Shown here: in pieces, positions 1 through 42,124 of the stretch
Numbering within the stretch: position 1 is the stretch's first letter
Layout: every line of letters begins with the position of its first letter
NCBI GenBank assembly: GCA_963977205.1
Contig: CAXBOF010000001.1
Location: forward strand, 1 to 42,124
Source: an uncultured Phycisphaera sp.
Lineage (GTDB): Bacteria; Planctomycetota; Phycisphaerae; Phycisphaerales; UBA1924
Length of the DNA: 42,124 nt
Direction: 5' to 3'
The notes under the pieces: generated by a model
What the model was told of the DNA's origin: nothing
What the model saw: the letters and a program-made list of their open reading frames with translations, nothing else
The model's database searches: none
Program-made: the position numbers and the translations under genes

Positions 1-31
1 TGTTCCGGTTGGACTGCTGTGCCGGTTGGCC

Positions 32-878
32 ATGGAGGTGGTGTCGGCCTGGGCGACATTTTGCGGAACACGGCCCGACATCCGGGGGCGCTGCGAAGTG
101 GGGTCAACACTCATCATGCTGCTGACGATGCATGCGCTTCCGGCGCACACCCAGAGCCTGATGCTCGCGGCCATCTTTGCATCGGGTGCACTTTTGGCTG
201 CTCCCTCGGCCGAGACGGCCGCCGTGTTCTCCGAGTTTGTGGCTGCGCATGCTCCTGGCCTGTGCGGCGACTGTGCGCTGTTTGGGGCGGTTCGTGCTGT
301 TGCTGCTGGGCGTCCACCGGGTCCGCTGTGCCGGGTCTCCCGAATGTGAATCCGAAAAGTGCGCGGTGAGACCGCCACAACTGGACATGCAGCCCGGCCG
401 ACACGTCGTGGCTCCCAAGCTCCGGGGTCGCGCCCGCCGACTTGCCCGCAAACGACCCCGTGCACCACCCCGGGCGCATCTGATAAAATCAGTGCCTGCA
501 CTGGATACATTTTCTATTGAAGAGCTTGTGGAGCGGGACCGCCGGGGACACACTGTGCTGCATGCGCTGGCGCGCGAGGGACGCCCCCGACTGTTTCTTG
601 CCGTTCTTCAGCGACTTCCGCCGCCTCTGCGTGGCCCCTTTCTGAATGCCCAGACGACTGCAATGGGGCCGGGGTGCGGCCGACGGACTGCGCTCCACAT
701 GGCTGCGCTCTACGGCCGAGTTGGGATGTGCAGGCTGCTGGTGGAGGCGGGCGCCAACCCCAGACTGCGGGACGAAAAGAATCGGACCGCATACGAGATT
801 CTGCGCTGCATCGTAGAGGCGGCAGAGCGGGACTTTAGCGAAGCCGTGAGCCAGCGCCGGATGGCTACGGCCGCATAA
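32..878 (+). CDS. Ankyrin-repeat protein; model join(32..334,393..426,493..878); may be 5'-partial at window edge
   Basis: Exon 493..878 translates to ANK repeats (GHTVLHALAREG...; RTALHMAALYGRVGMCRLLVEAGANPRLRDEKNRTAYE). An upstream high-GC3 hydrophobic ORF from ATG 32 (frame 2) joins frame 0 in phase through GT..AG introns 335..392 and 427..492. The upstream exons are less certain than the ANK exon. Confidence 0.55.
335..392 (+). other. Intron, 58 nt (ankyrin gene)
   Basis: GTCTCC...ATGCAG, phase 0. Removes the frame-2 stop at 347..349 and links to frame 0. Confidence 0.45.
427..492 (+). other. Intron, 66 nt, in-frame and retainable (ankyrin gene)
   Basis: GTCGCG...CTGATaaaatCAG, phase 1. 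Retention would only insert the Arg-rich RARRLARKRPRAPPRAHLIKS. Confidence 0.4.
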
Positions 879-909
879 ATCAGGCCAGGCGGAACTGTTG
901 CAGGGCCGG

Positions 910-1989
910 TTACGTGAAGGCGAGCCCTTTGTCTCCCGCGCTCTCGTCACCCGGCCGGAATGCGCGCCAGCACATCGACAGTGCAAACGGCAGGAAGAAT
1001 GCAAAGAACGTACTGCCGATCGCAATGATTTCGTGCTGGCTTTCGGACCAGCACATGAAGTTCGGTGCAAACTCGTGGCCATTCTTTCCCGCGTCGCCGT
1101 CGGTCCAGAACGTGTGTGTCGTCACAAAGAGCGCAAAGGCTCCGAAAATGACAAACACGAAGCACACCGCTGTGATCACCATGTGGAGGACGCGGACGAC
1201 CTTTTCGAGACCTGTGTCACTCTGCGACTCGTCGTTTCCAGCCCTGGCAAACGCGGAAGTGAATCCGACAGAAAGCATCGCGCCTACAATTACGCCGTAC
1301 ACATTCATCCGCGCGTGATAGATGTCCTCCTGGAGGCCGGCGTCGGTCTGCACCGAGGTGTGAAACACGTCCTTGTTGTCGATCTTCAATCCGATGTTTG
1401 TCACAAGCCCCGCCATCGCCCCCAACAGGAGGACCGCGATGCCGTAAAAGCCCCAGAACCCCCAGAATGCGTTCGGATGGGTATCTTTCTTGATCGGATA
1501 CCCGCCGTGCCACAGGGCGGATATCGTCGCAGCCGCAAAAGTCCACGCGGCCATCGCGTCGAGCCCGGGGTTGCCCGCCGACCCAATCTCCATGATGGCG
1601 GGGCCCTTGAGAATGGTCGTGGTGTCGTAGGCGCATTTCTCCTGGTTCCCATTTGCGTCATTGGGAATTTTGTACGCAGCGTGATCCTGGACCGTCTCAA
1701 CAAACATCCAGAGGACGAACGCCGCAAACCCGAACATTGTTGCCATCATGATCCACCCGCGTGGGTCTTTCAGACGCTCTTTCAGACCCGCCATTCCCTT
1801 CTTTGCGTGCCAACACGCGGCGGACACAAGCATGCCCAAAGCAATCATGATGAGGCCGACCCACGAGAGCCAATGCACCGTGTCATCCGACTTTAGGTGG
1901 GACCGGACGCCAACGCCGCTGGCAAAAAGGATGCCGCCCACGACGGCGCCAGTCCCCGCAAGATCGTACCCATCTAGACTGCTGATCAT
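910..1989 (-). CDS. Multi-pass membrane protein, 359 aa, unknown function
   Basis: Uninterrupted ATG-to-stop ORF with high GC3. Several hydrophobic helices (WLSWVGLIMIALGMLVSAACW, FWGFWGFYGIAVLLLGAMAGLV, VITAVCFVFVIFGAFALFV). TATAAG lies 33 nt upstream of the ATG. Confidence 0.8.
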   Translation of the reverse strand: MISSLDGYDLAGTGAVVGGILFASGVGVRSHLKSDDTVHWLSWVGLIMIALGMLVSAACWHAKKGMAGLKERLKDPRGWIMMATMFGFAAFVLWMFVETVQDHAAYKIPNDANGNQEKCAYDTTTILKGPAIMEIGSAGNPGLDAMAAWTFAAATISALWHGGYPIKKDTHPNAFWGFWGFYGIAVLLLGAMAGLVTNIGLKIDNKDVFHTSVQTDAGLQEDIYHARMNVYGVIVGAMLSVGFTSAFARAGNDESQSDTGLEKVVRVLHMVITAVCFVFVIFGAFALFVTTHTFWTDGDAGKNGHEFAPNFMCWSESQHEIIAIGSTFFAFFLPFALSMCWRAFRPGDESAGDKGLAFT

Positions 1990-2022
1990 GGTCTGCTATA
2001 GTGAGTCGACTGGGTGCCCTTT

Positions 2023-2028
2023 CTTATA
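2023..2028 (-). promoter_or_regulatory. TATA box (TATAAG)
   Basis: 33 nt upstream of minus-strand ATG 1989. Confidence 0.5.
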
Positions 2029-2100: not shown

Positions 2101-2787
2101 ATGGACCCGAACGATCACGTTTTCGATGCTGGCGGTGCTGCAGATGCGCCGCCCGAGCTGTTTCCGCTGTACACCACGTCTGGGTCTGTGACGGACCGGT
2201 CCGAGAATCTGTCGTGCTCCTCCAGCTCGTCCTTCTGCTACCTGTGCTCGTTTGCGGGCGAGACGGGCATGTCGGTGGACATTCGGGCGCACATCCGGGA
2301 CCTCTCGAAGCGCGGGTTTGAGCTTCCGGCCATTGCGCGGGCCGTGGCCAAAATCTACAAGCGCGACATCCAGCCGCACGTCGAGCATGCCCGAATGGAC
2401 GGCACGGTGCGGTCCCCGATTTGCAGTCTGCCCCCGAGTCTCACCCTGCCCCCAGACGGTCCAGTCGCCCGAGTGGTCGATCGAGGCGATTCACCGCCAC
2501 CTCAGCATGGGCGGCGAGTTTTCCGAGACGGTGTTTCAGGTGCGGTCGGTGCGCTTCCCCGACTCTGGGCGCCGTGCTGACGCTGCCTGCAGGATTCGGT
2601 GGTCAAGAACATCTTCACGCACCTGATTGTGCGACTCAACCAGCGCGTGCTGACTGCAGACGGCCATGTGGACGAGGGCGCACGAAAGGCTCTCCTGGAC
2701 ACCATCGGCGAGCAGACCAAGTGGCGGCGGTCGATGGAGGTTGGGGATTCGGGGCCGGGGGCGGGCACCAAGCGCAAGAAGAAGTAG
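2101..2787 (+). CDS. Hypothetical protein with basic C-terminal tail, 3 exons join(2101..2406,2456..2539,2593..2787), 231 aa
   Basis: The coding signal moves frame 1 -> 2 -> 1 across two GTGCGG..CAG introns, all junctions phase 0. C-terminus GAGTKRKKK is NLS-like. TATAAG lies 26 nt upstream of ATG 2101. Confidence 0.7.
2407..2455 (+). other. Intron, 49 nt
   Basis: GTGCGG...CTCACcctgcccCCAG, phase 0, frame 1 -> 2. Confidence 0.7.
2540..2592 (+). other. Intron, 53 nt
   Basis: GTGCGG...CTGACgctgcctgCAG, phase 0, frame 2 -> 1. Confidence 0.8.
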
Positions 2788-2829: not shown

Positions 2830-3117
2830 CTACTCTGCTGGCAGGAACGATTGCACCGGCCCTGCATTGGCGACCAAGAACTGGATGTCGGCCCGCTTGA
2901 CCGTCTTGCCCCGCCGGTGCTCGACCAGCGCCATCAGCTTTGTCACCAGATCCTTCACCTCGGTCTTGTACAGATCCGACACCCGACCCGACACGTTTCG
3001 GGCTGCCCGCCCTTGCCCAGTACGATAGACCATCTTCAGCCCCGCCGCACAGCTCATCTTAACCTCGCCTGGCGTCTTTGCGCGCCGCACCGAATCAGTC
3101 ACTGCCGTTTTCGCCAT
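2830..3117 (-). CDS. Histone-fold protein (H4/H3-like singlet), 95 aa
   Basis: ...NVSGRVSDLYKTEVKDLVTKLMALVEHRRGKTVKRADIQFLV aligns by eye with the histone fold (H4 ...[20 protein letters not shown]; H3 ...HAKRVTIMPKDIQLA, recalled from memory). N-terminal basic tail. TATAAG lies 33 nt upstream. Confidence 0.7.
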   Translation of the reverse strand: MAKTAVTDSVRRAKTPGEVKMSCAAGLKMVYRTGQGRAARNVSGRVSDLYKTEVKDLVTKLMALVEHRRGKTVKRADIQFLVANAGPVQSFLPAE

Positions 3118-3166: not shown

Positions 3167-3796
3167 CTAGATCGGCACCTTCGCCTGCACCGGCTGCACT
3201 GGGACCCCCGAGCGGGTTAGGATGCACCTGCCGTCGATGATCCTGCCCACTTTGACGCCGCAGACGGCCAGGTCCCCTGCCAGCGGCATCCGGCCGGGGT
3301 GGCCGCCTGGTACCAGGTTAAAATTAAATATGGGCACGACGCCCTCCACAATCACTCTGGCGTGGTTGAGGCCAAAGGGTGCCGTGACGGCCACCGGGGG
3401 CTGGTTGGGTGCCACGATGCCCAGGAAGAGCGCCCGGCGGGACGGCAGAAGCGTCCGGGCGACGTGACCCTTGTCGTTGGCCCTCTTGGCCACCTCGATG
3501 GCGGCGACGGCGGTGATTCGGTCTTTGTCGTCCGCCAGCCCCTTGGCCCATTCGAGCAGCTCGTTGTACGTGTGGTTCTCGTGGAGTGCCTTCCGCAACT
3601 GGCCCTCGGCGTCTCCACCCAGCACGTGGTCCTGCCTCTGGTTTACCCTGACGGCGATGGGCCGCCCTGCCACCTCGACCGTCGCCTTTTGCCCCATGAC
3701 GCCCGCGGGGTCATCGTCCACCAACAGCGGTTCGCCTGGACGTGGCACGAGACCCAGAAAGCGGTAGACGCACGTCGCAGAGACGGGCGCTGGCAT
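3167..3796 (-). CDS. Hypothetical protein, 209 aa
   Basis: High-GC3 ORF. I start it at ATG 3796 (MPAPVSATCVYRF...) because a TATATAT element at 3825..3831 lies inside the longer track ORF, 28 nt upstream of this ATG. Confidence 0.65.
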   Translation of the reverse strand: MPAPVSATCVYRFLGLVPRPGEPLLVDDDPAGVMGQKATVEVAGRPIAVRVNQRQDHVLGGDAEGQLRKALHENHTYNELLEWAKGLADDKDRITAVAAIEVAKRANDKGHVARTLLPSRRALFLGIVAPNQPPVAVTAPFGLNHARVIVEGVVPIFNFNLVPGGHPGRMPLAGDLAVCGVKVGRIIDGRCILTRSGVPVQPVQAKVPI

Positions 3797-3824
3797 CTGC
3801 GCGGTTGCACCTCCAATCTCCCCC

Positions 3825-3831
3825 ATATATA
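3825..3831. promoter_or_regulatory. Bidirectional TATA element (ATATATA)
   Basis: 28 nt from minus-strand ATG 3796 and 26 nt from plus-strand ATG 3858. Confidence 0.45.
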
Positions 3832-3857
3832 GCCGCGGTTTCCGCAAAGTATCGTCA

Positions 3858-4130
3858 ATGCGGGGAACGGGGCTTCTGGTCGCCTCCATTCTTGCCTCTT
3901 CAGTTTCACTCACGCACGGCAACCTCTGGTCGGGCGGTGTCTCGCTCGTCTTTGCGGCGCTTGTTCTCGAGCTTGCGCCTGAGCTGTCCCTGTCAGTCTC
4001 GCCTGCCCGACTGTCTGTGCTCCTAGAGGCGGTTGCGTCTGTGGTAGTTGTCGCAGCCGACGTCGACCACTACGCCGTGTTGGGTCTGGTGCTTGCGCTG
4101 GCATGTCTGGGGGGATCGAAGACCAAGTAA
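3858..4130 (+). CDS. Small hydrophobic ORF, 90 aa (possible membrane protein or leader exon of the next gene)
   Basis: ATG lies 26 nt downstream of the bidirectional TATA at 3825..3831. Three hydrophobic stretches, moderate GC3. Overlaps the ATG of the next gene by 28 nt. Confidence 0.3.
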   Translation: MRGTGLLVASILASSVSLTHGNLWSGGVSLVFAALVLELAPELSLSVSPARLSVLLEAVASVVVVAADVDHYAVLGLVLALACLGGSKTK

Positions 4131-5752
4131 AAGTGGTCCTCGGCGCTTTTGTGGAGAGTCCGCAGTATCGCCTTGCCGTCGAATCGTGGCAGCTTTCGAC
4201 GGTCGCGGGTGGCATCGATGTGGCCGACGGCTCGCCGGTTGATGTTCGCGGCGCAGCCGAATTGGTGCGTCACGCCCGATGTGCGGCGCCGGCTGCGTGC
4301 TGACCCTTTCCAGGTGCACTCGATGGTGCGGCAGCTGGTGCTGATGGGCTTTTGTGTGATTCAGGACGGCGTGGTGGACCCGATGGCCGCCATCTCGTGG
4401 GACAAGCAGAAGCGCGAGTGGGTTGCCCCAGTCAAGGACGAGGCTGAACCGCCCACCGTCTGCGTCTTCATGGCGCCGCTTGTGCATTCGAATGGCACTA
4501 CGCTCATGTCGTACGGCAGCGCCGCGCTGCCGGTGTGGTACCACCTGTCGGCCCTCACCGAAAATATGCGGCGGCGGGATGCGTTCAACTCGGCGCACAC
4601 CGTGTTCACCTCGGTCAATCCGAGCATGACGCCCGGCGACTCGCTCACTCCGTCCTTCATTGCGGCGCGGGGGCGGGCCGTCGGGGCCGCCGATCCAGAT
4701 TATACCACGTCTGACCGCCGGCACGAGCTGCTCGGGGACCTGATGCGCCGGTCCAACGGGCTGCGGTCCCATGGCGATGTTTTTATGGCGGGCCAGGGAT
4801 TCCCGGTCGACTCGAGGGCACCCAAGCTCCACTCGGAGCATTTTGTCACCGACGGTAAGCACCAATTTATTTTGGTCCAATCGTGCACACGGCCGGCACC
4901 GAAATCTCGCGCCCCTCGTCTGAACTCCCAAATCATGCACACGGCCCGACACCCCCACCCCTGGTTGCCCGCAATCTTCTGCTCCTGTGTCGACCCCCAA
5001 ATCGTGCACACGCCCCGACACTGGACCCCGTTCGACTCCCAAATCGTGCACACGGCCCGACACCACTGATGGCTCTGCAGGGATGAGTTCGGTGGGCGAG
5101 GCGCGACACCTGCAGGCCCCCGTGTCGGACATGAACCGGCTGGTGAAGCACTACGTGCACTCGTTCTACCAGGCGCTCGGGGTACCGCCTCAAAAGCTCG
5201 GTGCGCCGACTCTTCCTTCCCGCGCCATCGCGCCTCTCACTGACTGTGTCGCCAGGTGAGAACGTCAACTCTGAACGCCTTGCGGGATCCGAGATGATTT
5301 CGAGCGAGGCGCTGTGGACTCACGAGGCTCGAGTGCGCGATGTCCGGGATGTTGTCAACGAAGCGCTTGAGGTTCTCGGCGTCTCGCTGCGGCCGTCGGT
5401 GCGATACCGCGTCCTGGTGCAGCATCCAGAGCTGTTTGATCCGGAGAAGTACACCGACCTGCTGGCGCACTCGCTCGGGGTGCCCACCGAGTACGTGGCC
5501 CAGATCCCGGTCGAGACGGATGAGTCGACCCAGCAGCAGCCACCCACGAACGGCCGTCGGGGTGGCAATGACCACGATGCCGCCATGCAGCAAGGATCGG
5601 GGTCCCACAAACGCTGTCGCGACGGGAAGTTCTGCCAGAACAAACGGGGGGGGCCCGTGAGCGACATCCGCACTATTAGAGAACCCCATGCCAAGTTGGA
5701 TAGGGGCGAGACGCGCGTTCCGGAGGAGAAGAAGGGCCGCAATTCGGAATGA
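4103..5752 (+). CDS. Portal-like protein (tentative), 4 exons join(4103..4264,4314..4854,5081..5200,5256..5752), 439 aa
   Basis: Frames 2 -> 0 -> 1 -> 2 are linked in phase by three GT..AG introns. The spliced peptide ...VKHYVHSFYQALGVPPQKLG|GENVNSERLAGSEM... resembles the conserved ..a.GvPp.llG...sN.. segment of HK97-type phage portal proteins (recalled, not searched). The gene model is more certain than the function. Confidence 0.6.
4265..4313 (+). other. Intron, 49 nt (portal-like gene)
   Basis: GTGCGT...CTGACcctttCCAG, phase 0, frame 2 -> 0. Confidence 0.75.
4855..5080 (+). other. Intron, 226 nt, carrying four copies of a 25-nt motif (portal-like gene)
   Basis: GTAAGC...CACTGATggctctgCAG, phase 1, frame 0 -> 1. 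The only long intron in the window. Confidence 0.75.
4877..5063. repeat. Four dispersed copies of a ~25-nt motif CCCAAATCGTGCACACGGCCCGACAC inside one intron
   Basis: Copies at 4877..4900, 4927..4952, 4996..5021 and 5038..5063, with 1-3 mismatches each. Start-to-start spacings are 50, 69 and 42 nt. Confidence 0.85.
5201..5255 (+). other. Intron, 55 nt (portal-like gene)
   Basis: GTGCGC...CACTGACtgtgtcgCCAG, phase 1, frame 1 -> 2. Splits the GVPPQKLG|GENVNSE motif. Confidence 0.8.
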
Positions 5753-6681
5753 TGGACGAACGGGATGGCACCATCGTGTATGACAATGCGCTCACCGTAG
5801 ACGGCCAGCCAATGTACCACTACGCCGAGAGCGATGCGGACGGGTACATCGATCCGAGCGAATACGAGCAGCCGTTGTCCCGCGAGGCGTTCCACGAGCA
5901 CCATGCCCCCGAGGACCGATCCATTCCGGTGGTGGACGCCTCGCCCGAGACGCCGGAACGGTACCCGGCTCCGCCACGCCGTTTCTCGGCCGTTCCTGAA
6001 TCCTGGAATCCTCGCCCCGATCCTCCGCCCAAGCCTCCGCCAATCGAATCGATGCCACGGCGCCGGTCGGGACGGAGCCCACTCGTCGGCGCTGTGGGCC
6101 TGCTGGGCCTGGTGGGGTTGATCGGCATGGTGCCGTCGGACGACTCTGGTCCGGGCACTTCGGCCTCGACTGGCGCCTCGTGCCTCGTGGGATCGATCGC
6201 GTGGTCTGCTGCCCAGACGGTTCCTGCGGGGTACCGAATCGCCGACGGGTCTGAAATTGTCGAGGAGGACCACCCGGCCCTCTTTGCCGCCGTGGGGTCG
6301 GCAGTGCCCGATTTGGTGGGCCGGTACGCCCGTGGGGGCCTCGAGCCCGGTGCCGTCCTCGCCGCCTCTGTGGATGTCGGCTCGTTCTCGGTGGCCATTG
6401 ACGATCCTGGTCACTCGCACGTTGACGCAGCGGGCTCGACGGTGCTCCGCGACGGCAAGTACGCTCTGGCGCACCTCTACACGTGAGACGGCCCGCCCGG
6501 CATCGCCCCGCCCCCTCTTATGCGTGCATGCAGGTTTACGACGGACGGGGTCAACCTCAAGGACGCCGGGCCATCTGTGGTTCCTGCGCAGACGGGGATT
6601 GCTGCGCGGGTAGAGGGCGGCACCGAGACACGGCCCGCCAGCGTCGTCCTGGTTCCCCTCATCTGCACCGGCGGTCCGTAG
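5749..6681 (+). CDS. Membrane-anchored phage tail-collar domain protein, join(5749..6482,6534..6681), 293 aa
   Basis: LVGSIAWSAAQTVPAGYRIADGSEIVEEDHPALFAAVGSAVPDLVGRYARGG fits the tail-collar pattern (G.I...a....P.Gw..cdG.......yP.Lf..iG...PDLrGrf..G). Exon 2 supplies ...VEGGTETRPASVVLVPLI, the ETRP......I end of that domain. TM segment LVGAVGLLGLVGLIGMV lies upstream. The ATG overlaps the upstream stop (ATGA). Confidence 0.8.
6483..6533 (+). other. Intron, 51 nt (tail-collar gene)
   Basis: GTGAGA...ATGCAG, phase 2. The apparent stop TGA 6484..6486 is part of the donor. Splicing restores the ETRP-containing domain end. Confidence 0.85.
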
Positions 6682-6722
6682 CGGCGGTCCGAGACCAAAA
6701 TGGGAATCCGATCGTGTTTCTG

Positions 6723-6728
6723 TATAAA
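6723..6728 (+). promoter_or_regulatory. TATA box (TATAAA)
   Basis: 30 nt upstream of ATG 6759. Confidence 0.45.
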
Positions 6729-6758
6729 TTGAATGTTTCCGGCACCATAACTCGCGAG

Positions 6759-7660: not shown

Positions 7661-10600
7661 ATGTCGGCTGCACTCCCCGAGCGGATTTTCGCCCCTTGGC
7701 AAACCAAGTGCGTGCAGGCTGGTGCGACGTTCAAGGGCTCGCACTGCCTTCTCTTTACGCAGCATGTGCCCCGCGAGGCCGAGTTTGCGGATACGCACGG
7801 TGCATGCACTCCTGGCCCCCGGTGGATGGCGTATTTCGCTTTTTGCATGGAGGCGCTCCGGCGGATTCAGTGCCCCGAGACGCAGCACACGACGCTGCTG
7901 GTTGAGCAGGTGGTCGACGAGGAAACGTTTCGGGATGCGCTTGCGCGGGGAACGTGCGAGGTTACGCCGGCCCGGCCCCCACGCGCGTGGCGCTTCTGGG
8001 TCATCTTCAAGACGGTGGATTCCTACGTGCAGTTTGCCACCGCCTTTGAGCAGATGCTGGAGGAGGGGGCAGCCGCGTCAAAGAAGTGGCAGGGCACGCG
8101 GAAGGGCGGTCCGCCCAGGGTGGATCAGGCGTCGTGGGTCTCCATTGCGGGGTCTGATGACCTCATCCACGGTCTGCAGCACACTTGCAACATCCCTGGT
8201 GGCGCCAGCAGCATTGCACTCGACCCGGGAGCCGACATTGGCGCCAAGAACCACATGCTCAACCTCCAGTCGTCCGAGTTGCTGCACGTCAGTGGGGCGT
8301 GCCCCGCACAGACGGGACGATCGTACATCGATCGACCCACCCAGCCCGGCATGTTTGATGCGGGGGATGACGACTCGGGTCCGCGGCTGACCTGGCGGGC
8401 ACCCTACTCAAGGACCACGAACGCGGGCATCAACGCGGGCATCAACCCGTGCGTCGCACGCTTTCCCTTTGCGCCATGGGGCCCGAGGACGGACGATTTC
8501 CGCCGCCTGGCATACCTCGGGACTCCGACGCCCGCCCGCGTGCTAGAGCCGCACCTCCTCAATCGGGCCACTGGACCGGGCCAGGCGGACCTCATCCGCA
8601 AGCACGCGGACAGCAACACTCTCGACGAGTACCTCGCGAACACCCCGGATGTCAACGACCCGCGCGATGCGGGCATTGTCACTGGGGACTCGGACGCGGG
8701 GGGCGCTGCACTGTCCCGCTCGGCTGCCATGGCACCCGAGTTTGCACAGAACGAGGAGTCGGCATCTGCTCGCATGCGGGCCCTCCGAGTCAGCACCGAG
8801 ACCCTGGCGGACCAGGTCGAGACAGAGGCTGATATCAGGCGCTTTGTGGCCAAGATTCAAGGTCCCACTCGCTTTCTGAAGGAGGCCCCCGTCCCCGATT
8901 CCATCCCATCAAGCTACCACGCCCTGGCGACTGCTGCAGCTGCGACAGCGCGGGGTCCTGCCACGGACGCGACCAAGTGGGCCCGTGCATTCTTTGACGA
9001 CTGCCAGAACACGTCCGATCTCATGCGACGACTGTCGGTTGCGCTCGAGCGGTACGCTGGGCTGCACGTGGCTCAGGTGACTGTGTCCAACTGGGTCATC
9101 CTGGCAATCATGGCTCCGCTGCTCGGGCCGGCCCCTCGGGCGCACACTGCACTGGTGGGACAGCCCGCAGCCGGAAAAAGCTGGACGATGGACGTCCTGC
9201 GGAAGATCATGCCAGGGATGTTTTCGTCGGTCGACTACACGTCGCTCAAGGCAACCCTGGTGGACACGCTCGGGAGCCGCAAGGTCCAGGTGACGGACGA
9301 GATTGCCAAATCCGAACGGGTGAGCGGCGAGAAAACGCGGCTTTCGAGTGGCGAGGAGCGCGGCATCAGGGCCGCCGTGGTGACGGATGCCAACGGAAAC
9401 AGCAAGGTCGTCTCGCAAGACTTTACATCCGTGTGGAACCACACGCAACTCGCCTGTGGGAACCAGCCACCTCGCGGCGACACGCCAATCGACACGCTGG
9501 CGCTGCAATCGCGGCAGCAGGTGATTCACTGCGCCAACCCCAAGGGGTTTGCATCCGGGACGCCGAGGCTCCACGACCAAGTCCTGCTGGCCATCCGGAT
9601 GTTCCTGACCGGGGCTCCGATGCAGGTCGGCTACATCTGGGCTGCCGGCTGCCCCGTCGCGTCCTCGGATATGATGGAGGCGAGTCCCATGGCGCGCCGT
9701 CCCCAACCCGCGCCCGCTCATCCCTCTGCAGGTGCTGCAGGCGTACCGCCGGGTCAAGGGCAAGGCGCCAATTCCTGCGCGCGAACTGTCCCGCCTGCGT
9801 GCTGCTGCCATTGGAGCCATGTCGGTTCGGATGGGCATCGAGACACGGGGAATGGAGGGCATGGCCGTCGACGAGTACATTGTCCGCAACGCCTACGTCC
9901 GGACCGAGGACATTGTGATTGCTCTGCAGACCATGGTGCTTCCCACGCAGCCCGAGATGGCCCGCCCAGTCTCACCCGCCACAGGACGCCGTCGCGCAGT
10001 CGCATGCGGGCACCATCGTGTTCAAGGCGCTGAAGAACATGGTCAACGTGAACATTGAGCGCGATGCAGACGGAAACATTACTGGTGCGGCGGTGGAAAC
10101 CGACAACAAGGGCGAGCGGGCCATCCTTACACAGGCGATGACTCAAAAGTGGTTTGACCGTCTTGTCGCGACCGTGTGTGCGATTGCCAAGCGCGACGAC
10201 CGTGAAATGGTCCGCCTCGGCCAGCGCCCAGCCACGCGCCGGCTGCCACTCACTGCGCGCGCAGGTTCCGGCTGACGATGTTCTTCGGCGACAGCTGCAG
10301 GAAGCTACGAGCGGCGCCAGGCCCATCGTTCTCGAGTGCATCAAGAACGAATCGAGACAGGCGCTCGGGATTGACCTGAAGCAGGTTGGACCAGTCTACA
10401 CCAAGACCGAGGCTGCCATGATCAAATTCCTGCACGACATCTGCAAGACGCTTGCGTACACGGCCGTTCGGTACCCGGACGAGAATCACGTCATCTTTGG
10501 GTCGTCCATCGTTGATGACATGCGACAGGCCCATCAAACGTGTCGCAAATGGGGCCCCGGGGCCGAGAAGATGTGGACGCGAGCGACCAAGAACCTCGAT

Positions 10601-11326
10601 GCAACGGACGTCCAGTCCTCCATTGCGCGCCTGATTGCATCGGGGGACATTGTCCTCGACCGCGTGATCGAGTGCAAGTACGTCAAGTCGGCAGAGGGCG
10701 GGCGTCCATCCAAGCTGAAACCGGGATTTGACGTCCTGTCGGCCGAGGTGATCAAGCGGAATCAGGCTGCGGTCGCCCGTCTTCCTGCGTCTGCTTCAGT
10801 GGACAAAGAGTCTCTGACCAAACAATTTGCGGCCGACACGGACCCCAAACTGGACGGCCGCACCTTCCACGGCATGGCACAGATGTACGGCCAGAGTGTT
10901 GCAGAGTCGGCCCGGTCTGGCACCTTTACGGTGAGGCACGATGCATCGAAGCGGGTCCGGCTTCCGGACAGGAACTACATCCCCCCAGATCAGGACGACC
11001 TTCCTACGGCGCCCGGCGGAAGTGCGTCAATTTTTGACGGCAGCAGTCCGCACGTGGATGCGTCAACCGTCAACGAGCGGGCCAGGCAGTGTCATCTCGT
11101 GCGGATCTTTTCCAACATCTCGTTGGCCCCCCTTCCGACCACTGCCGGAACCAAGCGTCGGTCCACCGAGTCCGAGGGGGACGGCCCGCCGGTCGCTCCC
11201 AAGGCCGCGCGCCGCGACGCCGGCCCGGCACAACCCGTTGCGGACCCCGAAAGCGACATCGAGCCCGAACTCGATTGGCAAGAGCGCTTGCCGGTTGGAG
11301 ACGAGGACAGTATGCATGCAGAATAG
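7661..11326 (+). CDS. D5-like SF3 primase-helicase, 4 exons join(7661..9625,9732..9935,9985..10209,10265..11326), about 1151 aa
   Basis: Walker A LVGQPAAGKSWT, Walker B KVQVTDEIA and motif C HTQLACGNQPP form an SF3 helicase pattern of the D5 type. The coding signal moves frame 2 -> 0 -> 1 -> 2 at GT..AG introns. Start is ATG 7661, downstream of TATAAG 7604..7609. The donor of intron 1 is ambiguous (9626 or 9656). Confidence 0.85.
9626..9731 (+). other. Intron, 106 nt (or 76 nt from alternative donor 9656) (D5-like gene)
   Basis: GTCGGC (or GTCGCG)...CTCATccctctgCAG. Both donors are phase 0, frame 2 -> 0. Confidence 0.5.
9936..9984 (+). other. Intron, 49 nt (D5-like gene)
   Basis: GTGCTT...CTCACccgccaCAG, phase 0, frame 0 -> 1. 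Confidence 0.75.
10210..10264 (+). other. Intron, 55 nt (D5-like gene)
   Basis: GTCCGC...CTCACtgcgcgcgCAG, phase 0, frame 1 -> 2. Confidence 0.8.
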
Positions 11327-11932: not shown

Positions 11933-12121
11933 ATGGACCCCCACCCCGCGCAGTACCAGCTGATGGAAGCTGTTGGCCGTGCGCTGGCACCGCGGTGTCT
12001 GTTTCCCGATACTGCTCCTACGACGACGCCAAAGCCCGCGCCCGTCGCCACCGGAGGTGTCAAGCCCCCGCGCCGGTCGACGAGGCCATCACGCCCACCC
12101 CAGCGCTACGTGGCCGTCTGA
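11933..12121 (+). CDS. Small Pro/Arg-rich ORF, 62 aa
   Basis: ATG lies 29 nt downstream of TATAAT 11898..11903. Overlaps the 3' end of the convergent gene by 33 nt. No domain recognised. Confidence 0.35.
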   Translation: MDPHPAQYQLMEAVGRALAPRCLFPDTAPTTTPKPAPVATGGVKPPRRSTRPSRPPQRYVAV

Positions 12122-18641: not shown

Positions 18642-18672
18642 TGCACCACCATAAGAGGCTATGTCTTCCGTC

Positions 18673-33712: not shown

Positions 33713-34438
33713 ATGGAAGTAACCCCGCAGATGCTGTTCGAGGAGTCTGGCCTTGACGAGGGACAGCACGGCCCCCTGCTGCCGGCGCGGTGCAAGAGGA
33801 GCGCTTCCGAGTTCGATGCCGAGGCCGAACCCGAAGGGGGTGCTGCTGCCGAGGTCGGGACCGACGTGTACACGAACCGGGTCATCGCCGAGGTCGAGAC
33901 GGACTCTCCAGAGACGACGCTTGACCGGCGAATGGAGCAGCTTGCCGCTGCCGACGCGCAGCACGCAGCAGAGGCACACAAGAATCTTGACGAAGAGCAC
34001 ACGGAGCGGAGGAGGGCCGCTCATAAGGGACTGGACAAGGACCTGCTGGTGATTGCGCAGAGTCCTGGGCCGGAGATGAGCGGCAGGCTGCAGAAGCGGA
34101 TCCGGGAGGCTGACGAAGAGGAGCGAGAGGACGATCGGAAGCTGGCCATCGGAAAGGCCGCCATTGCCCATGCGCAGGGACGGATGCCGGATTGGCCCAC
34201 CGTGGCGAACCTTTTGCGCTGCCCCGTGCTCATGCAGAACACGGCGGATCCGGTCAGGCTCACATGCGGGCATACGGTGGACAGGGGCGTCGCTCGAGAG
34301 CTGTACGCCGCGTCGGAGGGGGTCTTTCCGTGCCCCGTCTGCAGGACGCCGAACAAAAGGCCAATCGCAAAGACGGGCGCCCGGAGGGATCCGCTGCTCG
34401 CGAGGCTGGTACGGGCGCTGGTGGGGAATGCGGTGTAG
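33713..34438 (+). CDS. U-box/RING-like E3 ligase-type protein, 241 aa
   Basis: C-terminal LLRCPVLMQNTADPVRLTCGHTVDRGVARELYAASEGVFPCPVCRTP carries the CP..M.DPV...CGHT U-box/SP-RING-type signature ending in CPxC. The N-terminal half is acidic and coiled-coil-like. Confidence 0.7.
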   Translation: MEVTPQMLFEESGLDEGQHGPLLPARCKRSASEFDAEAEPEGGAAAEVGTDVYTNRVIAEVETDSPETTLDRRMEQLAAADAQHAAEAHKNLDEEHTERRRAAHKGLDKDLLVIAQSPGPEMSGRLQKRIREADEEEREDDRKLAIGKAAIAHAQGRMPDWPTVANLLRCPVLMQNTADPVRLTCGHTVDRGVARELYAASEGVFPCPVCRTPNKRPIAKTGARRDPLLARLVRALVGNAV

Positions 34439-34581: not shown

Positions 34582-35940
34582 TCAGTCCGTCTCTACGACG
34601 GCGGTGATGCCGGGCCCGACTGTAAAGAGCTCGCGCCTGGTGGCACGCTGGGCGGCGACGAGGAAGTGCGTCTTCCGGATGCTTCCGTTTCCGACGACGT
34701 GAACGCCTGCTGGGGCCGTCATGCCCTGAGCCATGTCGATGGTGAAGCCGCCTGTGGGAGTTTAGCGGGCGCGCGCCCACATCCGCGCGGGCCTGGAAAT
34801 ACCGTGCCGGATGGGAACCACAAAGTGGCCTTCGAGCTCGAGGGGCTGCAGCGACACCTCTTCGCCAGTGCTGAGGATCGTGACGACGACGATGGCGTTT
34901 TCACCCATGACGACCGAGTCGGCCTCGATCTCTTCGCCGTCCTCGGAGATGACGCGCTCAAATCGGATGTCAGTCCCGTTGGTGAGCAGCGTCCCCCTTT
35001 CGGTGGCCCTGGCCTTGGTGTCAATGTCGACGCAGCCGTAGACGAGCCAGCCCTTGGTGTGGCCGCCCACAAAGCGCCCATCTTCGGCGTCCTTGCCGCG
35101 CTCCTTGGGGATGGTTTCGGGGTCGCTGGGGAGCAGCAGGATGCCCTCTCTGTCATTCTCGCGGAACTGCCGCACTGCTTCCCGCACATCCTCCCTGATC
35201 TGCCCGAGGATCAGAGCCCCCTCTGGCGGAACGGCAGCCCGACGCTGCCGGACAAGCTGATCCGCCAGCCCGCCCGGGATTTGCCATTCCTGGAGCTCGC
35301 TGAGGACGCGCTTCCAGTCGGGGTCCGTGTACCGCCGCGACTCTTTCAGCTCGATCGGGGGCGCCCTGCGCAGCAGAGGATGCGTGGATGCGGGCTTTCC
35401 ACCCCTCGGCTTGATCTGGCCCTCGTCGCCCACAAACAGGACGCGGACGCCGCCAAACGGCATCGACCTCGCCCGAAAGGTGCACCTCAGGATGGCATCC
35501 AGCTTGGCAATCTCGGCCGATGTCCACAGGCCAAACTCTTCGACGACAAGGATCTTTGGCGTCCCGGCGGGCGTATTGTACCACGGCTTTGATTTGGCAG
35601 TGCCGAGGGGAACCTTTGCCCACCATTTGGCGTCGATGGCGATCTTGGCCCACACGACGGCTTCTGGTGGGTAGCTGCCCCGCGGAACGGCGAGCCCGGC
35701 AATCGTCTGCCGGTGCTGCCCCAGCGACTTGTGGCTGATGGCAGTCACCATCACGCGGCAGCCGGCGTTTACCCAGCATCTGAGGACGTCTGCCACGACG
35801 ACGGACTTGCCAGTTCCGGCTTTCCCTATGAGCAGCACAACGCGGTGCGCCTCGAATAAGTCGCCGATCTGATCCGCTGCGGCCCTTTGCTCGCCCGACA
35901 GCACGGGGGGAGCCTGCGGAGTGGATTCGCGCCCGTCCAT
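34582..35940 (-). CDS. Pif1/RecD-like SF1 helicase, complement(join(34582..34751,34803..35940)), 435 aa
   Basis: Walker A LLIGKAGTGKSVV, motif II KILVVEEFG, MPFGGVRVLFVGDEGQIKP. Removing a 51-nt GTATTT..CTAAAC..CAG intron (phase 1) adds GFTIDMAQGMT...HFLVAAQRATRRELFTV, the C-terminal conserved motifs of this helicase type. Confidence 0.85.
34752..34802 (-). other. Intron, 51 nt (SF1 helicase gene, minus strand)
   Basis: Minus-strand GTATTT...CTAAACtcccaCAG, phase 1. Removes stop 34762..34764 and restores the helicase C-terminal motifs. Confidence 0.85.
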
Positions 35941-38073: not shown

Positions 38074-39787
38074 CTACCCAATGCTGTTTGGAAAGAGTTC
38101 CTTGAACGCCTGAAGAAAGTTGGCGGGCGGGGACCCCGCAGGCGGAACCTCGGGCGACTTCCATCGTGCCCACAGCTCTACGGCCACGCCGTGCGCCTCT
38201 TCGGCCGTCGTCTCCACAAACCGGTCCACAGAGGCCACGGCCGCCTCGGGCGCCTGCGCGTCAAACGCACGCAGAAAGTGATCCAGCTCTGCCGCCCCAA
38301 AAGCCTTTGGATTCTCTGCAAACCGCGCCAGAAACCCATCCATGTCCTCGGGCCGGGCGGCGCCGTAAATTTCCGCTGCGGCGTCCTCGCCACTCGAAAA
38401 GTCGGGGCAGTCCGCATCGAGGCGAACGAGGGTGCTCGAATCGACTGTGGCCTCGGAACCAGCGTCCTCTGCCTCCGCCTCGGGCTCTTCGGGCGCCTCG
38501 TTCCCAGAGGCAACGTCGGACCAGGCGTCCGGCGGGCCGGGGTGGGTCATCGTCTCGTCGACGTGCTCGACACAATCGTCGCCGTCGCCACCGAGATGGC
38601 CGTCCCGACTGCCATCGTCCACCGTCGGCGCTGCGTCTCCATCGCATCCACCACCTGCAGTTGGGGTGAGCCATGCGTCGGCACGGAAACGGACAGGCCG
38701 CACCGAGGGGGTCAGGAGCATCGGACTCAGCCATAGGATCACTGCGAGCCGGAAGAGCGTCTCTACTGTTTCCCTGGTTGACATGACGTTTATAATGGGC
38801 GACTCTCGGGTGACAATGGCCGACGAGGCGAGTCCCGCCATCATCTGCACCAGAATGCCTGCGGGCGGCGTCGGCGGGTGGCGGGGGCGGCAGGGCGGGC
38901 ACCGAACCCAGACGGCCCACAAAGGGCACCTGAAGGGCGACTACGATGGCGGGCTCGATCAGACGGCGCTCCCACTCTTCGATGGGGCCGCGCTCGGCCT
39001 GCAGGAACCGGAGCACGACCACGATGGCCGCCCCGGCGCCACAGATGCCCACGAAAGAGGCGTACCGCAGATATCGCCAGGCGGTGCTCGTCTCGAAGGT
39101 TTCGGCCGCGCCCACGATGGCGCCGAGAGCCGCAAGGGGACCGTCCACAATCAGCAGGAGCCACTTGGTCGAGTCTGCATCGGCGTCGGTGTCGTGCCGT
39201 GTTCCGGCGACGAGGGCCAGATAGATGCCGAGGAGGACTGTGGACATGATGGCCGCCGCGTCGTACAGGCTGCCCGTGGGGTGCGGCAGGATGATCCGAG
39301 TGGCGCCGTCGGTGCCGACCGTCAGGTACGCCCCGAGCGCCGTGGCGGACAGTGTGACGGTTCCGGGGACGCCCGACTCGGACGGGGTCAGATCGGCCGC
39401 CCAGACAGGATCGGTGCCGCGAAAGAGGGCGACGGTGGCCTCGACGCCGTTTGGGAACTGGTGGGCGGGCGCCGAAAAATCAAAGACGACCGGTCGCTGC
39501 ACGGTGACTGCATCGGACGAGAGGGTGCACTTCAGGCCGGTGGGATGCCCCAGGTCGGTTCCGACGGGCCCGATGGGCGGCAGCGTGTGCAGCCGGCCAC
39601 CGTGGATCCACAGGGGACTGCCGACTGCGGCCGCGACGTCCGAGAGGGCGATTGGGACCTCTGTGATGGTGACGTGGTGGTGGTCGACCTCGATGACGGT
39701 GGGGGATACGGCGACGGCGGCGGGGTCGGGGACGAGGCCAAAGTCCATCAGGGCGAACCCCGCGGCCGTGAGGGCGTACAGCTGCAT
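38074..39787 (-). CDS. Multi-pass membrane glycoprotein with acidic C-terminal domain, complement(join(38074..38858,38908..39787)), 554 aa
   Basis: ATG 39787 (MQLYALTAAGFALMDFG, signal-like) lies 31 nt after a minus-strand TATAAG. The order is ectodomain, hydrophobic helices, a 49-nt GTTCGG..CAG intron (phase 1), more TM sequence, then an Asp/Glu-rich tail. This joins two track ORFs (38261..39862 and 38074..38922). Confidence 0.8.
38859..38907 (-). other. Intron, 49 nt (minus strand)
   Basis: Minus-strand GTTCGG...cgcccgCAG, phase 1. Joins two overlapping track ORFs into one membrane protein. Confidence 0.8.
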
Positions 39788-40079: not shown

Positions 40080-40524
40080 CCACCTGCGAAGCGGAAAGGG
40101 TGTTTTCGTTGGCGAATCCCTGCAGCCGGAGCGCATATACCACCGAGACGACAACGCCCGCCGATGCAGACACTGCCGCAGCCGTGCGTGCCTCAGTTCG
40201 AAAGGCGTCAAACGCCGAGATGCACACGGCGACGGGCACGAGGGCCGTTGTGCCAATGGCGGCGACTGCGTACGCCTGCAGCCACGGCTCCCAGTCCGAG
40301 ACGGCCACCAGGCACGTGCCAGCCCCGCCTGTGGCTTCCAGCTGCTCTGCGATAAAGGAGTTGTATCCCTTTCCCATTGGGACGTCCACCGAGCGCGCGC
40401 CCGTGCACACCACCGTGAGGGCGGGGCAGTGATCGTCCAGCGTCACCCATGCTGGGATTCCGGCAGCCAAAAGCCCAAGTGCCAACAGCCCCACCGACGT
40501 CCGTGTATCACGGTGTAAACCCAT
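39991..40524 (-). CDS. Four-helix membrane protein, 177 aa
   Basis: ATG ORF. Hydrophobic helices SVGLLALGLLAAGIPAWV, AYAVAAIGTTALVPVAVCISAF, AAAVSASAGVVVSVVYAL, APTLFAGALLTQLALLVGV. The 5' end overlaps the divergent 40449 gene by 76 nt. Confidence 0.65.
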   Translation of the reverse strand: MGLHRDTRTSVGLLALGLLAAGIPAWVTLDDHCPALTVVCTGARSVDVPMGKGYNSFIAEQLEATGGAGTCLVAVSDWEPWLQAYAVAAIGTTALVPVAVCISAFDAFRTEARTAAAVSASAGVVVSVVYALRLQGFANENTLSASQVDVGRCAAPTLFAGALLTQLALLVGVRYTR

Positions 40525-41273
40525 GGGGCGTGCTGACTGTAGAGGCGCTGGACGCGAATCTGCCGTATCCGTGGCGCGTGGCGGTGTCCGGGGGGCCCTC
40601 GCCGCTTAAAGTGCACGGGCGCGGGCTTTATACCGACGACGCCGAGCTCCAGCGGTGGATCGAGACGCGGGCGATTCCGGCGATTGCGCACATCAACCGG
40701 GCTTTCGATGGCACGGATGCCAGTCCGCGTCGCGAGGCGATGGCCGAGGAGATTGTGGGGGCCCTGGGGTTTCTGGACCCGACCGAGGTTCCTGCGGCGG
40801 CCGTGGAGCACGTGGCGGTGGCGACGCCCGAGTACCGAGAGCGGCTGGTGGGGGCGCTGTACTTTATCTTTGCGTACAACGTGCCCGAAGAGTTTGTGGA
40901 GCACCGGGCGGGGGCGCTGGCGGCTGCACTGGAGCGTCCGCCGTTTGACGGTCCCCGGGATGACCACAGTCCGGTGTTCCAGGCGGCGTCGGCGATGGCC
41001 GTCCAGTACGCGCGGCGGCACCACCGGATGCCGTGGACTGTGCCGACCGACGGGAGCCGATGCACGGACCGGGTCGAGGCGATGGCGATGTGTATCCGAC
41101 TGGCGCGACTGTGCGCGTGGGCCGATGTGGCCACCGAGCTGGAGACGGAGGCGGCGCCGTGGGAGGAGGAGATGGCCGCGCGACCCGCCATCACGGACAG
41201 CCGGGCCAAGAGCGCCATCGCGCAGTGGCTCTCCGAGTGCAAACGTAGCCACCCCCCAGCCCTCAACATCTAA
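40449..41273 (+). CDS. Hypothetical protein, 274 aa
   Basis: High-GC3 ORF (…LQRWIETRAIPAIAHINRAFDG…LVGALYFIFAYNVPEEFVEH…). The start is uncertain: ATG 40449 is the only in-frame ATG near the 5' end and overlaps the divergent gene. Confidence 0.6.
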   Translation: MLGFRQPKAQVPTAPPTSVYHGVNPWGVLTVEALDANLPYPWRVAVSGGPSPLKVHGRGLYTDDAELQRWIETRAIPAIAHINRAFDGTDASPRREAMAEEIVGALGFLDPTEVPAAAVEHVAVATPEYRERLVGALYFIFAYNVPEEFVEHRAGALAAALERPPFDGPRDDHSPVFQAASAMAVQYARRHHRMPWTVPTDGSRCTDRVEAMAMCIRLARLCAWADVATELETEAAPWEEEMAARPAITDSRAKSAIAQWLSECKRSHPPALNI

Positions 41274-41298
41274 ACGCCGGCCCCAACCACCAGCCCCG

Positions 41299-41304
41299 TA
41301 TATG
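41299..41304 (+). promoter_or_regulatory. TATA box (TATATG)
   Basis: 35 nt upstream of ATG 41340. Confidence 0.45.
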
Positions 41305-41339
41305 CACCAAGCACACCACAAGACACCACCCAGACACAG

Positions 41340-42124
41340 ATGTCTGCCAGCCGAGACCCCCGATACGAATTGGATGAGTTAACAGCTCGTCTGGAAGCTT
41401 TAGATCAAGAACTCTCGGAGAGGGTGAAAGAAAGCGGTCGGCTCGAAGCTAGCAATTTTCAGTTGACGCAAAGGCTCGAGCGTGCAAAGGAAGAACTCGC
41501 ACGCAGTAGCCCAGGTCAGGCTGCAGCCCTTCAAGAGGTTCTAGACGATGAAGTCAAAAAACAAGCCGATCTCAGAGACAAGAACGATCGCCTTGCAGCG
41601 AAACTTGCAGAGCTCACAGAGGGTACAAAAACTCTCGCGGCTGAGCTGGAAGCGGCACAGGCCGAGGTAAAGCAGAAAAGTGAGGAAGCGGGAAGATTGG
41701 AAGCCGAATTGGAGCAAACTCGAGCCGCTCTCACTGCCCAACAGACCCTGAGCAAAGAACAAGCCACGCGCATCCAAGAGGTTGCAGCCGAAGCCGAGGC
41801 GGCACGGGCCCTGACAAATGAGAAAAGTGAGGCCGCGGGAACACTCCAGGCCCGTCTAGACGAGGCTCAAGCCGCTCTCACTGCCCAACAGAACCTGAAC
41901 GAAACACAAGCCAGAGGCATCCGAGACCTCGAAGAGAGCCTCGGGGAGGCTACAGCCGGAGCCGAGGCGGCACAGGCCGTGGCAAATGAGAAAAGTGAGG
42001 CCGCGGGAACGCTCCAAGCCCGTCTAGACGAGGCTCAAGTCGCTCTCACTGACCAACAGAACCTGAACGAAACACAAGCCAGGGGCATCCGAGACCTCGA
42101 AGATAGCCTCGGGGAGGCTACAGC
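41340..42124 (+). CDS. Coiled-coil protein with 56-aa tandem repeats, 3'-partial (runs off window)
   Basis: ATG lies 35 nt after TATATG 41299..41304, and the frame is open to the window end (absent from the ORF track because there is no stop). The sequence is heptad-like and Glu/Ala/Gln/Leu-rich. Codons are noticeably more A/T-ending than in the rest of the window. Confidence 0.8.
   Translation, partial: MSASRDPRYELDELTARLEALDQELSERVKESGRLEASNFQLTQRLERAKEELARSSPGQAAALQEVLDDEVKKQADLRDKNDRLAAKLAELTEGTKTLAAELEAAQAEVKQKSEEAGRLEAELEQTRAALTAQQTLSKEQATRIQEVAAEAEAARALTNEKSEAAGTLQARLDEAQAALTAQQNLNETQARGIRDLEESLGEATAGAEAAQAVANEKSEAAGTLQARLDEAQVALTDQQNLNETQARGIRDLEDSLGEAT
41625..42124 (+). repeat. 168-nt (56-aa) tandem coding repeat, about 3 units
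   Basis: Units starting at 41793 and 41961 are near-identical (...NEKSEAAGTLQARLDEAQ.ALT.QQNLNETQARGIRDLE.SLGEATA). The preceding unit from about 41625 is diverged. The third unit is cut by the window end. Confidence 0.85.

Follow-up and report, generated by a model that had tools for sequence, protein, structure and literature searches.

A GC-rich, intron-dense 42-kb stretch of marine DNA from a probable mirusvirus-like nuclear virus

A stretch of 42,124 nt filed under an uncultured Phycisphaera sp. (GenBank assembly GCA_963977205.1, contig CAXBOF010000001.1; here called the window) was characterized together with flanking sequence, ∼0.9 kb on the left and ∼20 kb on the right, giving ∼63 kb in all. 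The window probably derives from the genome of a large double-stranded DNA (dsDNA) virus of a marine unicellular eukaryote, a member of the Duplodnaviria that most likely belongs to an intron-rich, replication-gene-poor branch of the Mirusviricota. The nearest placement is most likely with viruses resembling the Okeanovirales and Styxvirales or with one of the ‘cryptic’ orders of that phylum. A mirusvirus-like nuclear dsDNA virus was among the readings offered in a preliminary description made from the letters of the window alone. It is the reading best supported by the portal fold, H4-like histone, heliorhodopsin, RING/U-box protein, PIF1-like helicase and dense introns reported below, and by the GC-rich, gene-dense and ORFan character of the sequence.

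GC content was uniformly high across the window (0.59–0.67 per 2-kb interval), and a bias in third-position GC (GC3) of the coding type ran in one frame through nearly all of it. Gene models were obtained with our own exon-aware finder, which used codon log-odds and GT/AG only, followed by hand curation. This gave ∼34 genes in 42 kb, at least eight of them split by short introns; calling of open reading frames (ORFs) in the bacterial style fragments many of these. The genes were intact, and all the coordinates named in the preliminary description corresponded to real genes, almost to the base. Searches of the window ORFs against Pfam, PHROG and PDB sequences left almost all of them without a match. 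Neither cellular genes nor rRNA nor Rfam-supported tRNA were found in the window or in the flanks read. A 97-nt tRNA-Ala(CGC) called by ARAGORN at 36292-36388 (−) lies inside a coding region, has no Rfam match at gathering thresholds and is probably false.

Portal, histone and other marker genes

The gene at 4103..5752 (+) consists of four exons (4103-4264, 4314-4854, 5081-5200 and 5256-5752), which are spliced into an uninterrupted ORF of 439 amino acids (aa). Among 5.8 billion proteins, 15 homologues were recovered, and no Pfam domain is recorded in any of them. An AlphaFold2 (AF2) model built from 12 sequences had a mean predicted confidence (pLDDT) of 62. When this model was compared with the PDB using Foldseek, the top 50 matches were all portal proteins, including those of T5, Haloferax tailed virus 1 (HFTV1), HK97, a gene transfer agent (GTA), T4, lambda and G20c; the best was T5 (9imv_A, E 4e-5), and the best-ranked probability was 1.0. 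Portals were again matched in BFVD, with herpes UL6 far weaker (probability ≤0.5). Both databases thus returned portals and not unrelated cellular families for a protein that had been described as portal-like, and we conclude from the predicted fold that 4103..5752 encodes a portal of the Duplodnaviria type. In sequence, an hhalign comparison of the portal family with HK97 gp3 gave no significant match. When 1.84 billion representatives were searched with a profile, 192 clusters were retrieved, mostly of 400–530 aa, that share the motif GVPPQxLGxNINSERLASS; Pfam Phage_portal was matched weakly by 5 of 60 sampled members of this family, and PHROGs by none. Next to the portal gene, two exons at 5749..6681 (+) specify a membrane-anchored protein with a phage-tail-collar domain (Pfam Collar, 24 bits, at the cut-off). 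Orthologues in the related loci L017 and L018 have the same domain, and that in L001 is 43% identical.

A second candidate for virion assembly is the 324-aa product of 18692..19835 (+), with exons 18692-18782, 18839-19001, 19059-19521 and 19578-19835. Its start, MHISGRWC, is conserved in relatives, and the L025 orthologue is 40% identical. The protein comprises a conserved N-terminal domain of ∼140 aa with invariant His and Ser residues (P[LV]TYEH, VSLTHVG, PLELSL), an Ala/Pro linker, a coiled coil and a conserved C-terminal helix, EDALLRAFQRRFD; one homologue is labelled ‘coiled-coil protein SlyX’ in its JGI source. Scaffold proteins have this architecture. The preliminary description had proposed an assemblin-like protease fused to a scaffold, and both its ends and the scaffold-like coiled coil were upheld. 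The protease fold found no support in any search: there was no Pfam or PHROG match even at E ≤ 10, and hhalign against HK97 gp4 gave a probability of 0.3%. On its sequence, the protein is a candidate protease-scaffold.

A 95-aa H4-like histone is encoded at 2830..3117 (−). Its profile, built from five orthologues, matched PDB histone H4 chains with an E value of 1.6e-10, pairing query residues 8-87 with H4 residues 15-95 and including the RKTV..DV signature, so that the histone fold proposed previously can be specified as H4-like; members of the family also match Pfam CBFD_NFYB_HMF and Histone weakly. The heliorhodopsin predicted at 31142..32448 (+) is encoded by four exons (31142-31252, 31444-32019, 32084-32188 and 32245-32448) and lies above the Pfam threshold (PF18761, 45.7 bits against a cut-off of 26.7), with alignment over profile positions 3-156 of 242, the N-terminal two-thirds. 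A Lys in the last transmembrane (TM) helix (SMLAKVPL) was noticed by eye only. Contigs from Tara assemblies carry the same gene with the same heliorhodopsin Pfam family.

Two further genes have matches of unequal strength. The protein of 34762..35940 (−) is a PIF1/RecD-like superfamily 1 (SF1) helicase that exceeds the cut-offs of Pfam AAA_30 (48.6 bits) and PIF1 (31.6 bits), and orthologues are present in all related loci. The product of 33713..34438 (+) is a U-box/RING protein of the C3HC4 type, whose matches to zf-C3HC4_4 (E 5e-4) and zf-RING_UBOX (E 1e-3) fall short of the curated cut-offs. This locus is polymorphic between strains: ∼760 nt with the U-box/RING gene is present in the window and in L009 and is gone from L008 (window 33711-34571 against L008 4022-4123).

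The large gene at 7661..11326 (+), with exons at approximately 7661-9625, 9732-9935, 9985-10175 and 10321-11326, encodes a superfamily 3 (SF3)/AAA+-like ATPase of ∼1,100 aa. It is conserved in all five lineages sampled, and in these the Walker A motif (GxxxxGKS), the DE of Walker B and the Asn of motif C are invariant. A weak match to the AAA+ core of HslU in the PDB (E 0.006) was its sole external match; there was no Pfam or PHROG match, and no D5_N, Pox_D5 or primase (AEP) domain was detectable. Of the D5-like SF3 primase-helicase proposed for this gene, the conserved SF3/AAA+ motifs A, B and C therefore stand, while the D5 and primase signatures are missing. From these motifs the protein is a candidate replication initiator-helicase.

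Introns and splicing signals

At least 22 GT-AG introns were identified in the window, with a median length of ∼53 nt and a density of ∼0.57 per kb. In 14 of the 22, a CTGAC or CTCAC sequence (CTSAC) precedes the 3′ splice site by 10–17 nt, as compared with 6% of random 35-mers (binomial p ∼1e-12). Because the gene finder did not use this motif, it is evidence for the introns that is independent of the gene models. Homologues that do not have the introns align across them in the portal, scaffold-like and giant glycoprotein genes. In the portal gene, an uninterrupted 382-aa homologue on a JGI contig gave four tblastn segments that break exactly at the splice junctions. In the scaffold-like gene, the last intron is not present in the relatives P0017 and P0020. 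In the giant gene, excision of the predicted introns 26113-26165 and 26426-26477 restored homology that is lost in the read-through frame. These comparisons indicate that the introns are real and spliceosomal, and the intron load noted in the preliminary description is borne out by them as well as by the CTSAC motif.

Some introns are in frame and were overlooked. A 57-nt intron of this kind in the scaffold-like gene (19002-19058) was missed by the preliminary description and by public gene calls; its excision produced a gapless alignment with the L025 orthologue, whereas read-through adds 19 spurious residues. A 48-nt in-frame intron on the opposite strand (18366-18413) contains a stop codon, and prokaryote-style calls are broken there. 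In each, a motif resembling a branch point lies near the 3′ splice site (CTGAT at 19002-19058, CTGAC at 18366-18413). In-frame introns are thus silently read through by prokaryote-style gene callers. With about one intron per 2 kb, this compact genome is a well-resolved case of a large DNA virus adopting eukaryotic gene structure.

Introns are unevenly distributed, with three each in the portal and scaffold-like genes and none in the PIF1-like gene, gene d (described below) and several others. Their positions in the scaffold-like gene vary by lineage (L025 11943-12400; L013 9560-10000): an intron follows MFISGKWC in the type found in L001 and L025, and the L013 type has extra introns. Because positions differ between lineages, we take it that introns turn over quickly and that the ‘intron-poor’ relatives of ∼139 kb, which have fewer introns than the window, but some, are not intron-free. 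In the longest portal intron (4855-5080, 226 nt), a 24-nt repeat that the rest of the window lacks, CAAATCGTGCACACGSCCCGACAC, occurs three times; this intron may be introner-like or expanding.

Relatives and comparison with mirusviruses

The same virus, at 98.8–99.9% identity, was present in several Tara assemblies, in an Alaskan-Arctic assembly (COLL22-1) and in other ENA and Logan runs. Portals 40–50% identical to that of the window occur in more distant relatives, whose contigs reach 139 and 145 kb. The lengths of two independent assemblies, 138,896 and 138,958 bp, suggest a near-complete genome of ∼139 kb. Gene order common to the relatives runs from the PIF1-like gene through the gene for a conserved 197-aa protein, the H4 histone, a ∼200-aa protein, a small protein and the portal to the collar protein, and then, with interruptions, through the SF3-like ATPase, gene c, gene d, the scaffold-like gene, gene f and the giant glycoprotein. 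No cellular genes and no host sequence were found in the stretches read of the syntenic 139- and 145-kb contigs. The lineage has no match in IMG/VR, and the genes for histone, portal, collar protein and SF3-like ATPase form a conserved block by which it can be found.

These features were compared with a recent survey of 1,202 new mirusvirus genomes (Medvedeva et al., 2025, Nat Microbiol, PMC12768974). In that survey GC content ranges from 25 to 72%, and up to 271 introns occur per genome; the introns are canonical GT-AG introns concentrated in virion genes, with branch points of CYSAC in Okeanovirales and CTGAC in Styxvirales. Metagenome-assembled genomes (MAGs) of these two orders have 55–62% GC, Pfam annotation for 13–14% of their genes, and have lost DNA and RNA polymerases. 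Core functions include heliorhodopsin, histones and C3HC4 RING proteins; the tables of the survey, as far as they were available, list orthogroups for PIF1 (407 genomes) and FG-GAP (187 genomes); and 13 poorly sampled orders are termed ‘cryptic’. The virus described here resembles the intron-rich Mirusviricota in its marine metagenomic origin, GC of ∼55–64%, dense GT-AG introns in virion genes with a CTGAC/CYSAC branch point, few Pfam-annotatable genes and no polymerase, and in its heliorhodopsin, histone, C3HC4 RING protein (weak here), PIF1-like helicase and FG-GAP proteins (in the flank). As in mirusviruses, the best Foldseek matches of the portal are phage portals. We file it as a probable mirusvirus because every positively identified feature fits the published description. 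Since late 2025 it is not new in kind, and it fits the known intron-rich mirusviruses. High GC and introns had been taken previously as hints of a lineage that may not yet be described, a view overtaken by the survey, which already covers such genomes (orders with 55–62% GC and CTGAC/CYSAC branch points). The histone and heliorhodopsin, listed in the preliminary description as typical of giant-virus repertoires, are indeed present, but both are core mirusvirus genes and not borrowings from giant viruses.

Several observations weigh against this assignment. Searches by Pfam, PHROGs and PDB sequence detected no HK97-fold major capsid protein (MCP), triplex 1 or 2, terminase or jelly-roll protein in the window or in the ∼0.9 kb and ∼20 kb beyond its ends. 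The absence of a recognizable capsid, triplex or terminase gene, already remarked for the window, therefore extends to the flanks. P-loop motifs in open frames of the window were confined to the SF3-like and PIF1-like genes, and no terminase Pfam match was obtained in the related or flanking loci read. TBP, Snf2 ATPase and Snf7 had no Pfam match among the window ORFs, although their genes may lie elsewhere in the genome. The window contigs were not matched to any MAG in the supplementary tables of PMC12768974, as far as these were available, and the 192-cluster portal family was not tied to named mirusviruses. The portal is shorter (380–440 aa, as compared with 648 and 690 aa in the two mirusvirus portals sized), and the protease and D5 assignments are unproven. 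Other differences from intron-rich Mirusviricota are the ∼139–145-kb contigs of the relatives (mean MAG, 265 kb), an intron density about three times the averages of 0.18–0.2 per kb in Okeanovirales and Styxvirales, and the large SF3/AAA+-type ATPase conserved near the portal. The missing MCP means little, because the sequence read amounts to about half of a ∼140-kb genome. As the Mirusviricota are delimited by their MCP, with triplex proteins and terminase, the membership proposed here is probable and not formal.

The same differences could instead point to a eukaryotic lineage of Duplodnaviria separate from both Mirusviricota and Herpesvirales, with genomes of ∼140 kb, a phage-sized portal and a divergent capsid gene; its nuclear, intron-rich lifestyle would be convergent, and its heliorhodopsin and histone acquired independently. 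In favour of such a lineage are the lack of MCP, triplex and terminase in ∼63 kb, the short portal, the ∼139-kb genome seen in two assemblies, and the absence of IMG/VR matches and almost all Pfam and PHROG matches. Every positive feature, however, matches published mirusvirus traits, the branch-point motif included, and the 13 ‘cryptic’ orders already hold small, singleton-rich MAGs of 56–96 kb; we regard the separate lineage as unlikely. We attach the same low probability to a broader formulation in which the window and its relatives make up a deep nuclear lineage of protist Duplodnaviria not yet described, either outside the published mirusvirus orders or as a new class within the phylum. 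This lineage would comprise at least five sub-lineages with contigs of ∼139–145 kb, and possibly also the 192-cluster family of 400–530-aa portals. Its portal would be phage-sized, its capsid gene would have diverged beyond recognition, and an SF3-type initiator and PIF1 would be its sole replication genes; if so, it would be the smallest-genome, most host-dependent branch of the eukaryotic HK97-type viruses. The published picture of the Mirusviricota is unchanged unless the capsid genes prove different.

Herpesvirales share with the virus a nuclear, eukaryotic setting within Duplodnaviria, a portal, a scaffold protein with a C-terminal tail, spliced genes and envelope glycoproteins. They differ in that no herpes Pfam match and no herpes-type polymerase or helicase-primase were found here, and in that herpesviruses have neither histone nor heliorhodopsin. 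The HK97-type and other small portals of Caudoviricetes and HFTV1 (370–420 aa) are similar in size and predicted fold and are the best Foldseek matches; the portal of the window has no detectable sequence similarity to them, and it differs in its eukaryotic host and three spliceosomal introns.

A tailed bacteriophage or an archaeal virus would account for the origin of the closest solved portal structures (tailed phages and an archaeal tailed virus), for the phage tail-collar domain and for related contigs that are gene-dense and mostly called as uninterrupted ORFs. It would not account for spliceosomal introns with branch points, an H4 histone, ankyrin and U-box proteins or stretches resembling nuclear localization signals (NLS), and no tail or terminase genes were found. 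PHROG matches were zero, tblastn against 50,697 phage genomes gave no match, and the portal motif did not occur in 185,579 prokaryote genomes. A nucleocytovirus is countered by the lack of any Pfam match among the window ORFs to the hallmarks of nucleocytoplasmic large DNA viruses (NCLDV), namely the double-jelly-roll MCP, A32 ATPase, PolB, RNA polymerase and VLTF3, none of which was recorded in the flanks. The NCLDV-like informational genes announced in the preliminary description did not materialize, there being no DNA or RNA polymerase, D5 or A32 in the window. The nucleus-dependent ‘Ariadnavirales’ are likewise without replication genes and have heliorhodopsin and PIF1; they were rejected, as introns and portal are absent from Ariadnaviruses. 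We conclude that a phage, an archaeal virus or a nucleocytovirus is extremely improbable, and consider these readings effectively refuted.

An integrated or episomal copy in a protist genome, as opposed to DNA from free virions, was also considered. The intron density of ∼0.57 per kb resembles the 0.62–0.65 per kb of the mirusvirus episome and integrant of Aurantiochytrium limacinum (Soporavirales), for which nuclear particle production has been reported and which shows that intron-laden mirusvirus genes are functional. In addition, all assemblies break within ∼1 kb of the left end of the window, where a repeat or insertion junction is possible. The Aurantiochytrium case differs, however, in coming from culture and not from Arctic plankton, and there is no evidence of integration in the window. 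No host junction was found within 0.9 kb on the left or 20 kb on the right, and the flanks contain no ordinary host genes, contrary to the endogenous copy envisaged previously. Intact genes with GC3 bias, the lack of cellular gene, rRNA and supported tRNA, near-identical copies with strain-level indels in many samples, and the 139–145-kb relatives without host sequence in the stretches read all argue in the same direction. We regard an endogenous or episomal copy as rather improbable; the question concerns the state of the genome and not the identity of the element, and it partly overlaps with the mirusvirus-like virus that we favour.

For such a virus the following cycle may be envisaged. The host nucleus would be the site of viral transcription and replication, and the host spliceosome would process the viral pre-mRNAs (GT...CTSAC...AG, introns of ∼50 nt); basic NLS-like stretches occur in several window proteins. 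No polymerase gene was found in the ∼63 kb read, and host polymerases would probably be recruited through the ∼1,100-aa SF3/AAA+-type ATPase as origin-binding helicase, with the PIF1-like helicase. How a virus of >100 kb replicates with host polymerases thus becomes a concrete question. The H4-like histone might package viral DNA or disguise it as chromatin. Capsids would assemble on the coiled-coil scaffold protein, with DNA entry by way of a dodecameric portal. Envelope or entry roles may fall to the giant Cys-rich glycoprotein and the collar-domain membrane protein, and the heliorhodopsin and U-box protein may serve in host manipulation.

Remaining genes and flanks

The preliminary description listed several eukaryote-interaction genes, among which the ankyrin, RING/U-box (weak, below cut-off) and glycoprotein genes were recovered. 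The ankyrin-repeat protein at 177..878 (+) matches Pfam Ank (36 bits against a cut-off of 21.1), Ank_5 and Ank_2; the 5′ part of the model is provisional, and the gene is also called with Ank matches in Tara contigs. The glycoprotein gene at 21495..28869 (+) was modelled by the gene finder with at least 10 exons and introns of ∼50 nt. It encodes a giant Cys-rich type-I membrane glycoprotein with a C-terminal TM anchor and is collinear with a single L025 ORF of at least 1,984 aa. The kinase-like protein at 29855..30937 (+) has HLTDLKADN and IDWD motifs in its translation only, with no Pfam or PDB match, and no C2H2 protein was located in the window.

Four genes had been suggested as places to search for the capsid. 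That at 12089..13543 (−) is an ORF for a 484-aa helical protein, 28% identical to a 360-aa L001 orthologue and without a family match. Gene c, at 14283..15847 (+), has a C-terminal cluster of CxxC zinc-ribbon motifs and a provisional 5′ exon; it is 37% identical over 389 aa to a 462-aa L001 protein, with invariant Cys pairs, and has no PDB match. Gene d, at 16751..18265 (+), encodes 504 aa with a basic NLS-like stretch and a C-x-H-x7-C-x2-C knuckle; its homologues are P0023-P0028, and an AF2 model from a shallow alignment had a pLDDT of 37.5. Gene f, at 19905..21425 (−), combines a conserved N-terminal beta-rich domain with a variable Ala/Pro-rich helical region; L013 and L015 have orthologues of 680–710 aa, and the gene occupies the same position in L025 and L027. 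Two of the four thus have conserved zinc-binding Cys/His clusters, which are atypical for capsid proteins. A small conserved membrane protein is encoded at 18201..18644 (−; ends approximate), with tblastx conservation of 77–80% in L013 and 35–47% in L025; its gene holds the 48-nt in-frame intron at 18366-18413, which reads GT..CTGAC..CAG.

On the left of the portal, a conserved 197-aa protein with a basic NLS-like C-terminal tail is encoded in three exons at 2101..2787 (+). It is 42–59% identical to orthologues of 196–200 aa in four other lineages and has no PDB or Pfam match. This protein, with the motif RSENLSCS..FCYLCSY.GETG, and the portal are the most conserved of the block. The 240-aa conserved protein adjoining the portal gene (3167..3889, −) has no family match; its L001 orthologue is 40% identical, and genes for 161–209 aa occupy its syntenic position in L006, L017 and L018. 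A 359-aa multi-pass membrane protein is encoded by a single ORF at 910..1989 (−; GC3 0.75), with a sub-threshold Cyt_bd_oxida_II match only. Towards the right end, the gene finder placed a two-exon multi-pass membrane protein at 38074..39787 (−), whose orthologues in L001 are two genes, of 303 and 96 aa. A conserved 274-aa protein follows at 40449..41273 (+); the exact protein occurs on 10 public contigs, and a 264-aa L001 protein is 36% identical.

The window ends inside the gene for a 625-aa coiled-coil protein, of which it holds the 5′ part (41340..42124, +); the full gene is L008 10892-12769. A 168-nt tandem repeat at 41778-42124 (Tandem Repeats Finder, TRF; 2.1 copies, 93% identity) continues in L008 to 12769 and encodes repeated coiled-coil units; the protein also has a long Gly run. 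The sequence beyond was read in TARA scaffold_425 (L008), which extends ∼31 kb past the window and of which 20 kb was read. Genes in this right flank encode the coiled-coil protein, two membrane/zinc-binding paralogues of ∼870–900 aa, a GT64 glycosyltransferase and FG-GAP/beta-propeller proteins. The paralogues, judged such by eye, comprise 865 and 899 aa (L008 12801-15398 and 15464-18163) and have Gly/Ala-rich hydrophobic N-terminal halves and Cys-rich C-termini. A gene for 871–872 aa lies at the corresponding position in L001 and L006, and a metagenome search with the 899-aa protein returned only a 4.4-kb Tara contig. In L023, the GT64 (exostosin-like) gene is at 7196-8098, and two FG-GAP/beta-propeller genes of ∼470 aa are at 384-1805 and 5697-7112; their products match the FG-GAP orthogroup that the survey records in 187 mirusvirus genomes. 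On the left, all assemblies, including L020, L021 and L022, end within ∼0.9 kb of window position 1; this shared end may reflect a terminus of the genome, a terminal repeat or some other repeat that breaks assembly.

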